A stretch of 64,000 nucleotides of DNA from Escherichia phage BEU50: the sequence record OM632671.1, one strand, 5' to 3'. The translations under genes were made by a program, and so were the position numbers. The notes under the pieces are model-generated. The model had not been told where the DNA came from. It did no database searches and worked only from the letters and a program-made list of their open reading frames with translations. Positions 29,884 to 63,178 of this stretch are shown here, piece by piece. How positions within the stretch are numbered: position 1 is the first letter of the stretch; the number at the start of each line of letters is the position of its first letter.

Positions 29884-29957
29884 GGCCCTGTAGCTCAATG
29901 GTTAGCAGCAGTCCCCTCATAAGGGAAAGGTTACCAGTTCGAATCTGGTCTGGGTCA
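29884..29957 (+). tRNA. tRNA with anticodon CAU (Met, or Ile if lysidine-modified)
   Basis: Manually folded cloverleaf: acceptor GGCCCTG / CTGGGTC, anticodon loop CTCATAA, T-arm ACCAG-TTCGAAT-CTGGT; D-stem imperfect. Confidence 0.7.
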
Positions 29958-29963
29958 TATATT

Positions 29964-30040
29964 CGAGGCATAGCTCAATTGTATGGAGCAACGGACTTCT
30001 AATCCGTAGGTTGAAGGTTAGAATCCTTCTGTCTCGACCA
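29964..30040 (+). tRNA. tRNA-Arg (anticodon UCU), CCA encoded
   Basis: Acceptor CGAGGCA / TGTCTCG, anticodon arm ACGGA-CTTCTAA-TCCGT, T-arm GAAGG-TTAGAAT-CCTTC, 3' ACCA; 6 nt after the previous tRNA. Confidence 0.85.
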
Positions 30041-52579: not shown

Positions 52580-52750
52580 ATGCAAGTTAAATTATTGTAC
52601 CGTTTATTAAAAAATGGCAAGCATGATTGGTATTTGCTTATTAAAACCGATCCGAATTTTTTCTCCGGACAACCATTTACAGTTCGTCCTACTAAACGTC
52701 AGCTTCGCAAAGCTAAACGTTCTCATCGTAACTTTTATAACGTTTACTAA
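52580..52750 (+). CDS. hypothetical small basic protein (56 aa)
   Basis: Manually translated ORF MQVKLLYRLLKNGKHDWYLL...; not in the track. Confidence 0.4.
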   Translation: MQVKLLYRLLKNGKHDWYLLIKTDPNFFSGQPFTVRPTKRQLRKAKRSHRNFYNVY

Positions 52751-52790
52751 ATAATAAATACCCTTATCTATTTAAGGTAAGGGTTTTATC

Positions 52791-53262
52791 ATGTTATTAT
52801 CAGGCAAAATATAAAGAAGAAAAACAAAAATTTTATGATGCACAGAATGGTAAGTGTCCTATTTGCCACCGTGAATTAGACCCTGATGTTCAAGGTAACC
52901 ATCTTGACCACGACCACGAATTAAACGGGCCAAAAGCCGGTAGAGTTCGTGGATTACTCTGTAATCTGTGCAACGCAGCAGAAGGTCAAATGAAGCATAA
53001 GTTCAACCGTTCCGGTCTTAAAGGACGTGATGTTGACTACCTCGAATGGCTTGAAGCTCTTCTTGCTTATTTGAAACAAGATTATTCTTATAATAATATC
53101 CATCCTAATTTTGTTCCAGACAAAACTAAAGAGTTCTCAAGACTAGGTAAAGAGGAAATGATGGCTGAGATGCTTCAAAGAGGATTTGAATATAATGAAT
53201 CTGACACCAAAACACAGTTAATAGCTTCATTTAAGAAGCAACTTAGAAAGAGTTTAAAATGA
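52791..53262 (+). pseudogene. 49: endonuclease VII (gene 49) interrupted by a frameshift at codon 7; internal-start ORF 52990-53262 intact
   Basis: ATG 52791 gives MLLSGKI then stop; the +1 frame from 52810 encodes YKEEKQKFYDAQNGKCPICHRE...CNLCNAAEGQMKHKFNRSGLKG..., matching recalled T4 EndoVII; apparent 2-nt loss in aaaatat(at)aaag. Confidence 0.7.
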
Positions 53263-55076
53263 CAATTGAAAAAGAAATTGAAGGATTGATTCATAAAACT
53301 AATAAAGACCTTTTAAACGAGAATGCTAATAAAGATTCTCGTGTTTTTCCAACTCAACGGGACCTTATGGCTGGTATTGTGTCTAAACACATTGCCAAAA
53401 ATATGGTCCCGTCTTTTATTATGAAAGCGCATGAAAGCGGAATTATCCATTTCCACGATATTGATTATTCCCCTGCTCTTCCATTTACTAATTGCTGTTT
53501 AGTAGATTTAAAAGGAATGCTTGAGAACGGGTTTAAGCTCGGTAATGCACAGATTGAAACTCCTAAATCAATCGGTGTTGCTACTGCAATTATGGCACAA
53601 ATTACTGCACAAGTTGCTTCACACCAGTATGGCGGAACGACTTTTGCTAATGTAGATAAAGTACTTTCTCCTTATGTTAAACGCACCTATGCAAAACATA
53701 TTGAGGATGCAGAAAAATGGCAAATCGCTGATGCGTTGAATTATGCTCAATCCAAAACAGAAAAAGATGTCTATGACGCATTCCAAGCTTATGAATATGA
53801 AGTAAACACTCTCTTTAGTTCAAACGGACAAACGCCTTTTGTAACAATTACATTTGGTACGGGAACTGACTGGACTGAACGAATGATTCAGAAAGCAATT
53901 CTGAAAAATCGTATTAAAGGTCTTGGTCGTGATGGGATAACTCCTATTTTCCCTAAGCTTGTTATGTTCATTGAAGAAGGTGTTAATCTTTATAAAGACG
54001 ATCCGAACTATGATATTAAGCAGCTTGCGTTAGAATGTGCAAGCAAAAGAATGTATCCTGACATTATTTCGGTTAAGAATAATAAAGCTATTACCGGTTC
54101 ATCTGTTCCTGTTTCTCCAATGGGTTGCCGTAGTTTCTTGAGTGTATGGAAAGATTCAACCGGTAATGAAATTCTTGATGGTCGCAATAATCTTGGTGTT
54201 GTAACATTGAATCTTCCTCGCATCGCGTTAGATTCTTATATTGGAACGCAATTTAACGAACAGAAATTTGTTGAATTATTCAATGAACGAATGGATTTAT
54301 GTTTTGAAGCTTTGATGTGTAGAATTAGTTCCTTAAAAGGAGTTAAAGCGACTGTTGCTCCTATTCTTTACCAAGAAGGTGCATTCGGGGTTCGTCTTAA
54401 ACCTGATGACGATATAATTGAGTTATTTAAAAATGGTAGAAGTTCAGTGTCCCTAGGATACATTGGTATTCACGAATTGAATATTCTTGTCGGTCGTGAT
54501 ATTGGACAAGAAATTTTAACTAAAATGAATGCTCATCTTAAACAGTGGACTGAAAGAACTGGATTTGCTTTTAGTTTATATTCGACTCCTGCTGAAAACC
54601 TTTGTTATCGCTTCTGTAAACTTGATACAGAAAAATATGGAAGTGTAAAAGATGTTACCGATAAAGGCTGGTACACTAACAGTTTCCACGTTTCAGTAGA
54701 AGAAAATATTACTCCGTTTGAAAAGATTTCTCGTGAAGCGCCATATCATTTCATTGCGACAGGTGGTCACATTTCTTATGTTGAACTTCCTGATATGAAA
54801 AATAACTTAAAGGGTCTTGAGGCCGTATGGGATTATGCTGCACAACATTTAGATTATTTTGGTGTTAATATGCCAGTAGATAAATGTTTTACATGCGGAA
54901 GTACCCATGAAATGACTCCTACTGAAAACGGATTTGTTTGTTCTATTTGTGGAGAAACTGATCCTAAAAAGATGAATACCATAAGAAGAACATGCGGCTA
55001 TCTTGGAACTCCTAGCGTTGTTCCATGGAATTTAGGTAAAATGAAAGAAATGGTAAAACGAGTAAAACATGCATAG
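53259..55076 (+). CDS. nrdD: anaerobic ribonucleoside-triphosphate reductase NrdD (no intron)
   Basis: 605 aa uninterrupted; C-terminal Zn Cys cluster and glycyl radical motif RRTCGYLG. Confidence 0.95.
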   Translation: MTIEKEIEGLIHKTNKDLLNENANKDSRVFPTQRDLMAGIVSKHIAKNMVPSFIMKAHESGIIHFHDIDYSPALPFTNCCLVDLKGMLENGFKLGNAQIETPKSIGVATAIMAQITAQVASHQYGGTTFANVDKVLSPYVKRTYAKHIEDAEKWQIADALNYAQSKTEKDVYDAFQAYEYEVNTLFSSNGQTPFVTITFGTGTDWTERMIQKAILKNRIKGLGRDGITPIFPKLVMFIEEGVNLYKDDPNYDIKQLALECASKRMYPDIISVKNNKAITGSSVPVSPMGCRSFLSVWKDSTGNEILDGRNNLGVVTLNLPRIALDSYIGTQFNEQKFVELFNERMDLCFEALMCRISSLKGVKATVAPILYQEGAFGVRLKPDDDIIELFKNGRSSVSLGYIGIHELNILVGRDIGQEILTKMNAHLKQWTERTGFAFSLYSTPAENLCYRFCKLDTEKYGSVKDVTDKGWYTNSFHVSVEENITPFEKISREAPYHFIATGGHISYVELPDMKNNLKGLEAVWDYAAQHLDYFGVNMPVDKCFTCGSTHEMTPTENGFVCSICGETDPKKMNTIRRTCGYLGTPSVVPWNLGKMKEMVKRVKHA

Positions 55077-55088
55077 GGTTAAACACCA

Positions 55089-55721
55089 ATGAATTATGAC
55101 AGAATCTATTCAAATCTAGTTAATTCTGCTGAACACCCATCTAAGCCCCGTCAAACTAAAGCCGGGTATGAACTTCATCATATAATTCCAAGAAGCATGG
55201 GTGGTCCAGATGATTTAGACAACTTAGTATTTTTAACTTATAAGGCCCACTATACTGCTCACCATTTATTGGCTAAAATATATGGTGGAAAGATGTATGA
55301 TGCATATTGGATAATGAGTAATAGTAAGCATAGAAAAGTTACTTCTTCACAATACGCGTATGCAAAAGCTAAGAAATTTGAAAATCAGCGTGGCGCAAAA
55401 AGAAGCGATAAAACTAAGAAGCTAATGAGCATAGCTAGGTCTAAAGTAACTCTTCCTGATGATTTTGGAAAAAGGATATCTGATGGGCTAACAGGAAGAA
55501 CTTTGTCTACTAGTCATAAAGAGCATATCAAAAATAGTTCTAGAAATCGCTTTAACACCAAAACGGTTATTGGCTATTCACCAGACGGAAATACAATAGA
55601 ACTAACTGGAGCAACTGAAATAAGAAATGCAGGATTTTTTCATTCTGCTGTTTATAAATGTTGCAAAGGAATTCAATCTATTCATAAGGGATATACTTGG
55701 AAATATAAAGATGAATTATGA
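55089..55721 (+). mobile_element. free-standing HNH homing endonuclease between nrdD and nrdG
   Basis: HNH core YELHHIIPRSMGGPDDLDNLVFLTYKAHYTAHHLL; first 7 codons (MNYDRIY) match nrdG; stop overlaps the nrdG start. Confidence 0.8.
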
Positions 55722-56181
55722 TAGAATATACCCGTGCTGCTTTGTTAATGGTCCTGGATGCAGGGTCGTTCTCTTCGTCACTGGATGTTTGCATAAATGC
55801 GAAGGTTGTTATAATCGTAGTACTTGGAATGCTCGTAACGGACAGTTATTCACTATGAATACCGTTAAAGAACTTGCGTCCCATTTAAGCAAATCGTATA
55901 TCCAAGGCCTTACCTTAACCGGTGGTGACCCACTTTATCCACAGAACCGAGAAGAGATTTCAAATTTAGTTTCTTGGGTTAAAGCAAGATTTCCGGAGAA
56001 AGATATCTGGTTGTGGACAGGATATAAGTTTGAAGATATTAAACAGCTAGAAATGCTTAAATATGTTGATGTTATTATTGATGGGAAGTATGAGAAAAAT
56101 CTTCCGACTAAAAAGCTGTGGCGAGGATCAGATAATCAGCGACTTTGGTCAAATACCGATGGGGTGTGGAAACATGATTAA
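55711..56181 (+). CDS. nrdG: anaerobic ribonucleotide reductase activating protein NrdG
   Basis: MNYDRIYPCCFVNGPGCRVVLFVTGCLHKCEGCYN (radical-SAM CxxxCxxC); 156 aa. Confidence 0.93.
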   Translation: MNYDRIYPCCFVNGPGCRVVLFVTGCLHKCEGCYNRSTWNARNGQLFTMNTVKELASHLSKSYIQGLTLTGGDPLYPQNREEISNLVSWVKARFPEKDIWLWTGYKFEDIKQLEMLKYVDVIIDGKYEKNLPTKKLWRGSDNQRLWSNTDGVWKHD

Positions 56182-57709: not shown

Positions 57710-57848
57710 GGAAATTATGAATATCAAACGCTGGCTTTTTAAGCAAGGGTTCTACACTTTAAATGCTACTCCAAAAGGCGATACAACTAAGTGGTCAGTA
57801 ACTGACTGGATTAAATTTATTGATGAAAATGGCAATTGGGAAATTTAA

Positions 57849-62323: not shown

Positions 62324-63178
62324 GTGAAGAATTTTAAACTTGATATTAATGACGAATTTTTAATAAAGGAATTAGTTGAAAAATTAGTGTTGAGCGAAGA
62401 AGACGCCAAGTCTTACATTAATTTTATTTCTATGAATTCAACTGTTAAAACTCCGGGTAAAACGGAAGCACATCACGTGCTTCCTAAATCAATATTTCCT
62501 GAATATTTAAAATCTACATGGAATTTAGTTAATTTAAGTCATTTTAATCATTTCAAAGCACATTTCTTATTAGCAAAAGGTAAAAATGGAAAAATGCTAA
62601 ATGCTTTAAATAGAATGATGTCAGGAAAAACATATAAAAATTTATCTTTAGCCGAAGTTGATTTAATAGCTGCTGAATATAGTTTTATAAGACAAGATGT
62701 AAGTGACACAATATCAAAAAGGCTTCAACAATATTATTCAAATCCGCAAAATAGAAATGCTGCTAGAGAAAGGGCATTAAAATATTTTTCAGTAGCAAAA
62801 AATAGGAAAGATAACAAAGAAAGATTAAATAATTTTAAAACAAAACAAAAAATTTCAATGGCTTCAAGGGAATGGTTTAATAACGAAGAAAATAAAATTA
62901 AACACCAAAAGGCTGTTCGTGCTGCTTTATCAAAACCTGAATATAAAATAGCTATATCAAATTCAGTAGCTGCTAGTTGGAAAAATCCGGAGATTAGAAA
63001 AGCTCATATAGCATCTCGACGAAAAGGCTATCATTGGGATAATAAAGATAAATTGTATGAATTGTGGATATCATATAATCGTCCTAAACATGTGATGTTT
63101 AGGAAAATGTTAGTTAAGAATGGATATCCAATAGAGGCTTCATTACAGGCTTTAGTTAAAGAATTTTCTTCATTGTGA
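62324..63178 (+). mobile_element. free-standing HNH homing endonuclease (Mob-like) between genes 47 and 46
   Basis: HNH core TEAHHVLPKSIF...NLVNLSHFNHFKAHFLL; C-terminus paralogous to the HEG at 43883; very AT-rich; GTG start after SD aaagga. Confidence 0.75.

Follow-up and report, generated by a model that had tools for sequence, protein, structure and literature searches.

Gene 49 of phage T4 encodes recombination endonuclease VII (EndoVII), and T4 gene 49 mutants are conditional lethals. Heteroduplex repair in T4 works in very short patches, and EndoVII takes part in it. Barth et al. reportedly set out in 1988 a scheme for the expression of T4 gene 49 comprising a hairpin-sequestered ribosome binding site, a late promoter and a nested product, gp49′. 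In PMC2988022 the ribosome binding site of long transcripts is concealed by the hairpin, inside which a late promoter starts. T4 is described as keeping the EndoVII nuclease under tight translational control (PMC2988022). The resolvase function has been called 'probably essential in vivo' (PMC9958956), and the main-text passages of the CRISPRi-ART and transposon screens hold no mention of gene 49. Here we describe a gene 49 in which no single reading frame encodes the enzyme.

The window analysed is the whole 64,000-nucleotide stretch of Escherichia phage BEU50 (OM632671.1). It belongs to a Mosigvirus, i.e. an RB69-like T-even phage, with a20 and NRG-P0074 as the closest records. The gene order (nrdC, small ORFs, gene 49, nrdD, nrdG, gene 55, gene 47, gene 46) is the same as in RB69. 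The features of the locus are collected in Table 1.

Table 1. Features at and near gene 49, with positions in the window and the analyses on which each assignment is based.
Feature	Position	Strand	Basis
T4-type late-promoter-like box, AATAAATA in the window	52753..52760	+	alignments
Hairpin with 10-bp stem and 5-nt loop (ACCCTTATCT ATTTA AGGTAAGGGT), followed by a T run	52760..52784	+	fold, terminator scan
Gene 49 start remnant in frame 0, MLLSGKI then TAA	52791..52814	+	reading-frame analysis
Deletion junction GGC/AAAA (Mosigviruses GGC GC AAAA, T4-likes GGC AAA TT A)	52803..52809	+	alignments
Gene 49 remainder in the +1 frame (EndoVII residues 8-157, a20 numbering)	52810..53262	+	alignment, Pfam
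First ORF in the EndoVII frame with a start of its own (GAAGG 52981-52985, 4-nt spacer, ATG 52990, 90 aa)	52981..53262	+	ORF list, Pfam
Tequatrovirus-origin tract with mobC, the nrdD 3′ end and the nrdG 5′ end	54977..56007	+	identity, site-by-site comparison

Gene 49 begins ATG TTA TTA TCA GGC AAA ATA TAA (52791-52814), so that frame 0 yields MLLSGKI before a TAA stop at 52812-52814. The rest of EndoVII (YKEEKQKFYDAQNGKCPICHRE...KSLK, beginning YKEEKQ) lies in the +1 frame from 52810 and ends with the TGA at 53260-53262, which overlaps the ATG of nrdD (53259). Both halves of this arrangement had been reported in an earlier note made from the letters alone, namely the heptapeptide with its stop and the continuation of the protein in the +1 frame with no start codon of its own, and both were reproduced here. 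The +1 frame is uninterrupted between a TAA at 52738-52740 and the TGA, and between 52741 and 52989 it contains no ATG, GTG or TTG; the first start codon is ATG 52990. No near-cognate CTG, ATT, ATC or ATA was seen in this frame 5′ of 52810. An alternative start, or reinitiation, for the catalytic part is ruled out by the lack of ATG, GTG and TTG upstream of 52990. Two ATG codons at 52835 and 52838 were rejected as starts, being in the third frame and followed by a stop after 14 codons. The deletion therefore cuts the catalytic body off from the one start codon that could serve it, and no single ORF encodes EndoVII: with TAA as codon 8 of frame 0, a single ORF holding a start codon and both domains is not found.

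The 156-aa conceptual product obtained by joining MLLSGK to the +1 frame matches T4 EndoVII from end to end (PDB 1E7D/1EN7, E 1e-92). It scores 71 bits against PF02945 (Endonuclease_7, cut-off 23.6) and 112 bits against PF09124 (EndoVII dimerisation domain). Residues C23, C26, C58, C61, D40, H41, H43, N62 and E65 are all conserved in the alignment to 1E7D, and the remainder of the gene in the +1 frame contains Cys23/26/58/61 together with the H-N-H catalytic region and, at the C-terminus, the dimerisation domain. Judged by these matches, the broken gene is gene 49, a well-known gene for a Holliday-junction resolvase, recombination endonuclease VII. The same identification had been offered in the earlier note, and the structural alignment and the two Pfam domains bear it out.

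ATG 52990 corresponds to Met68, and the 90-aa ORF that it opens (52990-53262) carries PF09124 only. A product from this start had been predicted to lack the catalytic residues, which agrees with the Pfam result; the zinc ligands are missing as well. ATG68 and the preceding GAAGGTCAA, with its GAAGG, are invariant in 10 genomes, and the dimerisation domain alone could be made from here. What the earlier note called an internal-start product is simply the first ORF that opens with an ATG, and not the internal start annotated in T4, where gp49′ begins at the GTG of codon 53 and is 105 aa long (AF158101, 583-900). The equivalent codon (52947-52949) is GTT in the window and in 4/4 Mosigviruses checked, GTG in T4 and T2, and GTA in a further four Tequatroviruses that were compared (P8, a48, BCPEco_001 and SHFML-11). 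A T4-type nested gp49′ was accordingly rejected for the window, since GTT stands in place of GTG at codon 53. To judge from these codons, the T-even phages probably do not all share the nested 12-kDa gp49′ that has been described in T4.

The lesion itself is the loss of one GC dinucleotide. In five Mosigviruses (a20, ECO111 5-P, JM10, RB69 and NRG-P0074) gene 49 starts ATG TTA TTA TCA GGC GCA AAA TAT AAA, which gives MLLSGAKYKEEKQ and a 157-aa protein. Compared with these five, GGCGCA has lost one GC in the window, at the 52805/52806 junction (codons 5-6); the intact allele reads GGCGCAAAA and that of the window GGCAAAATATAA. When the GC is put back, gene 49 is identical to that of a20 over 474/474 nt and one base off that of NRG-P0074, and a chance feature is excluded because of this identity. 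T4 reads GGC AAA TTA TAC at the same place, and the T4-like (Tequatrovirus) group considered below as donor reads GGC AAA TTA TAT AAA. In the earlier note 2 nt appeared to be missing from a short TA repeat. The size of the loss is correct, but against its own genus the site is the GC of GCGC; the loss takes on the look of an A/T-tract event because the comparison was made with T4-type sequence. Both descriptions are true, which proves informative. The further suggestion of a real pseudogene, in the sense of decay, is unsupported because the gene carries no other change, with 0 further differences from a20 over its 474 nt. The lesion is a unique 2-nt deletion, either a very recent disabling mutation or an assembly error, and involves no new biological mechanism.

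A 48-nt probe across the junction matched 115 phage records with a Mosigvirus-type leader, none of them (0/115) at 100% identity. Among the probe matches listed the matched span is 50 nt, meaning that the GC is present. With a 91-nt region the best full-length match was 95.7%. The exact allele pattern was absent from IMG/VR, where a single contig holds even the intact allele (a weak denominator), from metagenome contigs, from GTDB genome contigs and from complete E. coli genomes. In each of the ten T-even genomes inspected directly (10/10), gp49 is encoded in one frame. With the allele missing from all the related records searched, conserved recoding is not supported, and recoding, which the earlier note had listed among its options, found no backing in either the related records or the contig sets.

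A closer look at the surroundings reveals that the GC loss does not stand alone. Between 52580 and 53300 (721 nt) just three differences separate the window from a20, and they fall inside 55 nt: a T>A change at 52753, by which TATAAATA becomes AATAAATA, one additional T in the run at 52784-52787, and the GC loss. All three window states are states found in T4-like phages. The Tequatrovirus group carries the A, and SHFML-11 has the four-T state also. Aligned with gaps, the Mosigviruses read GGC GC AAA -- ATATAAAG, the donor group GGC -- AAA TT ATATAAAG, and the window GGC -- AAA -- ATATAAAG. Mosigvirus and donor are hence set apart by a pair of compensating 2-nt indels, GC and TT, that lie 3 nt apart and exchange Ala-Lys for Lys-Leu, and the window has neither dinucleotide.

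We therefore favour, with a probability of about 0.55, a real allele of recombinational origin, i.e. a mosaic scar left by a T4-like exchange that disables full-length EndoVII. A Mosigvirus gene 49 would have recombined with that of a T4-like phage (Tequatrovirus) at the compensating indel pair. The end-point of the exchange, or a separate repair of heteroduplex loops, would have fallen between the two indels, taking the donor state at the first and the recipient state at the second. The outcome would be GGC AAA ATA TAA, a net change of -2 nt, with full-length EndoVII disabled. By a rough estimate, the chance that three random changes all match the donor lineage is <1e-3. Both this origin and the presence of the allele in phage DNA, beyond the consensus, are what we infer from the deposited sequence. 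Several observations weigh against recombination, particularly as a single event. The body of gene 49 (52807-53148) is Mosigvirus-type at 72/72 informative sites, so the gene is purely recipient-type beyond a T4-like 5′ patch of just ~55 nt, and the next donor-type site is ~730 nt away. Donor and recipient states that alternate within <10 nt require either very short repair patches or independent events. Moreover, the A at 52753 also occurs in the Mosigvirus NRG-P0074 and the length of the T run varies among the T4-likes, so these two may be ordinary polymorphisms, whilst the GC loss could be plain slippage in GCGC.

A likely source for the T4-like alleles at the 5′ end of gene 49, judged from allele states, is a tract centred on mobC that lies 2.2 kb downstream. 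mobC encodes a 210-aa HNH protein (55089-55721, HNH domain match) between nrdD and nrdG, and is absent from a20, NRG-P0074 and RB69. The segment 54900-56100 is 99.9% identical to Tequatrovirus vB_Eco_BCPEco_001 (PV295200.1), 99.8% to SHFML-11 and 95.9% to T4, and its close matches, among those inspected, are all Tequatroviruses. Within the tract given in Table 1 the donor state is present at all but one of 741-742 informative columns; the Mosigvirus state prevails from 56248 rightwards and from 53148 leftwards. The locus thus has what homing-endonuclease co-conversion would leave behind, a homing endonuclease gene with foreign-like flanks in a native backbone. In nrdD (53540-54740) donor and recipient sites are interleaved, in places 3 nt apart, part of which may be explained by an imperfect donor proxy, BCPEco_001 and SHFML-11 themselves differing at several nrdD sites. 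Such interleaving would fit either a patchy tract of co-conversion or polymorphism common to both genera. The one observation that suggests that the lesion shares the mobC conversion event is the match in allele states.

Some further features of this part of the genome were recorded. The portions of nrdD (3′) and nrdG (5′) that fall within the mobC tract diverge strongly from their counterparts in other Mosigviruses, and the start of mobC repeats the first seven codons of nrdG (MNYDRIY). At 57769-57846, about 14 sites match T2 and a48 (Tequatrovirus) as opposed to a20, NRG-P0074 and RB69, and include a 1-nt indel that gives a 44-aa hypothetical ORF (a20_185, gp55.4-like) a different C-terminus. 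Genes 47 and 46 have between them an ORF of 284 aa (62324-63178) with the HNH-like motif AHHVLPKS...NLVNLSHFNHFKAH. This ORF is missing from a20, is listed in the NRG-P0074 annotation as a homing endonuclease, and gave no Pfam match at E<=0.001.

The leader of gene 49 holds the other two differences from a20. The box upstream is TATAAATA in a20, RB69 and JM10, and AATAAATA in T4, T2, P8, a48, SHFML-11, BCPEco_001 and the Mosigvirus NRG-P0074. The T4 late-promoter consensus, together with the scheme in PMC2988022, suggests a promoter role for it. The hairpin that follows is invariant in all aligned genomes of both genera, holds the gene 49 Shine-Dalgarno AAGGG (52779-52783), and has a fold centroid of -12.9 kcal/mol; the annotations of NRG-P0074, PhAPEC2 and ATK47 list it as a terminator. 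It scores as terminator-like and, as folded, is predicted to sequester the ribosome binding site. The T run after it (52784-52787) has 4 T in the window versus 3 in a20 and RB69; four are found also in P8, a48 and SHFML-11, and the run length varies among T4-likes. In P8 (Tequatrovirus) pairing between an upstream A-containing tract and the downstream U-run adds a lower stem extending as far as the AUG, and the fold energies are -18.2 kcal/mol for P8, -15.1 for the window and -12.9 for a20. These folds fit the T4 scheme of a hairpin-hidden ribosome binding site. A coordinated inactivation of late expression by the three changes was considered and rejected, as both AATAAATA and the four-T run are normal in phages with an intact gene 49. 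Directly 5′ of the hairpin, a 56-aa ORF (52580-52750) matches DUF7279 (PF23945, E 1e-14). A pin gene lies upstream of gene 49 in RB69 and NRG-P0074, adjoining the hairpin in the latter, and is absent from the window and from a20.

The allele could instead be an artefact, in which case gene 49 of the phage is intact and the 2-nt loss is confined to the deposited consensus. Such a loss could arise if the consensus was called site by site on a lysate shared with a T4-like phage, or as a lone indel error. A frameshift in a gene held to be essential, with no other change in that gene, is the classic signature of an error. Indeed, the conditional lethality of T4 mutants and the view that the function is probably essential make a plaque-purified carrier of the allele unexpected. 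The allele is, moreover, unmatched in all sequence sets searched, and the three local differences mimic T4-like states, as the mixing of Tequatrovirus reads at a near-identical block would.

The quality of the rest of the window speaks against an error. The ~60 kb alignment to a20, at ~99% identity, contains some ten indels not divisible by three, and those other than the GC loss fall in intergenic DNA, where BLAST alignments end or, in one case, at the C-terminus of the 44-aa ORF. We compared frames over 138 a20 ORFs of at least 70 aa for which both ends could be mapped, and found a broken frame in one real gene, gene 49. The remaining discrepancies were antisense ORFs, start-codon differences and in-frame insertions. 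Random indel errors would mostly hit coding DNA, and so the other indels look like genuine selected variation. An assembly prone to indels was therefore rejected, gene 49 being the sole real gene with a broken frame in the 64 kb, and the lesion is either the single error of the window or a real mutation. Loss of a GC dinucleotide is also atypical of homopolymer error. The proposal of the earlier note, an error in a low-complexity tract, had misplaced the site, which is the GC of GCGC, and other signs of indel error were not found in the window. Furthermore, the T4-like states each lie within 2-10 nt of Mosigvirus-specific bases. Such close interleaving could not be produced by path switching in a k-mer assembler, and calls for real molecules or reads, or else for three per-site miscalls. 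On this evidence an artefact is possible, if not what we expect, and the allele, all origins taken together, is probably real.

A real allele need not have come from recombination. A spontaneous slippage deletion in GCGC during propagation would leave a gene 49 hypomorph or null in the stock. Leakiness, complementation at high multiplicity or suppressors at other loci might then sustain it. The tandem GC repeat in GGCGCA is a standard substrate for replication slippage, and the neighbouring A and four-T states are natural polymorphisms that need no linkage to the deletion. However, the three differences cluster in 55 nt and each is the state of the donor lineage, a coincidence that we put, as above, at <1e-3. 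We regard simple slippage as unlikely.

The reading frames allow for one further route to EndoVII. The AAAA at 52806-52809 is the only site that permits perfect +1 re-pairing of a P-site tRNA-Lys, the next frame-0 codons being AUA and UAA (candidate slip site TCAGGCAAAATATAAAGAA), which suggests a potential for slippage at AAA-A. Full-length EndoVII would need this rare +1 slip inside the first seven codons, with tRNA-Lys on AAA-A ahead of AUA UAA; the resulting MLLSGK-YKEEK... would fall one residue short of wild-type length. Without the slip, only the 7-residue peptide would be made, perhaps along with the 90-aa dimerisation fragment that starts at ATG 52990. Any such residual expression is again something we infer: if the allele is real, the yield of slippage would be low and incidental.

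Programmed +1 frameshifting, or a short hop, evolved for the control of EndoVII dosage could appeal to the perfect re-pairing of tRNA-Lys, to the rare AUA and then UAA next in frame 0, to a weak AGG just upstream and to the translational control that EndoVII is already under in T4 (PMC2988022). A search for stimulatory elements found only that AGG, 1 nt upstream; the fold shows no structure downstream of the hairpin, and an Rfam scan of the region gave chance-level matches only. Two tRNA genes, with anticodons CAT and TCT, lie at 29884-30040. The former may be an AUA-reading tRNA-Ile, as in T4, rather than a tRNA-Met. Since the slip site in its +1 arrangement is conserved in none of the relatives (0/115 records, no environmental contig, ten relatives all single-frame), since neither an Rfam element nor a special downstream structure is present, and since an AUA-decoding CAT tRNA, if that is what it is, would abolish the slow codon, programmed frameshifting is very improbable.

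Taken together, these data leave the recombinational allele as the preferred reading, and its consequences depend on whether the phage carries it. If the lesion is an error, the matter is one of annotation only and gene 49 should be flagged. If it is real, it would be a natural example of mosaic exchange between diverged T-even phages breaking a gene at compensating indels, and one would have to ask what amount of EndoVII a T-even phage requires. The boldest form of this, a real and plaque-forming allele in a T-even phage that is nearly without resolvase, or reliant on an unprogrammed slip at GGC AAA-A AUA UAA, with the lesion as collateral of a homing exchange, seems to us unlikely. Either outcome leaves the current understanding of EndoVII and of recoding unchanged. 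The most informative outcome is the likely origin of the lesion, as a mosaic junction of two phage genera at a compensating indel pair.

Set beside known systems, the locus resembles each of them in part. It shares with the +1 frameshifting of prfB (RF2) a potentially re-pairing P-site codon, here AAA-A, and a nearby frame-0 stop. It differs in that the stop is one codon further on and not in the A site, in having no strong Shine-Dalgarno stimulator at the proper spacing, and in having no conservation among relatives. With mobC homing and co-conversion in T-even phages (PMC2988022) it has in common mobC with diverged Tequatrovirus-like flanks, here in a Mosigvirus backbone; a tie to the gene 49 lesion would, in contrast, have to span 2.2 kb, and the gene body between the two is recipient-type. 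With regard to the expression scheme of T4 gene 49, the hairpin holding the Shine-Dalgarno and the upstream TATAAATA-like box are present and conserved, whereas the GTG of gp49′ is missing, leaving ATG68 (90 aa) as the sole, putative, internal start. Lastly, T4 gp49 (PDB 1E7D, 1EN7, 2QNC) and its orthologues in a20 (WBF82755.1) and RB69 (NP_861776.1) are each one ORF, whereas the frame in the window is broken at codon 6. Shared with them are the two Pfam domains, the full-length alignment to T4 EndoVII, the place between the hairpin/terminator and nrdD, and the ATGA overlap.
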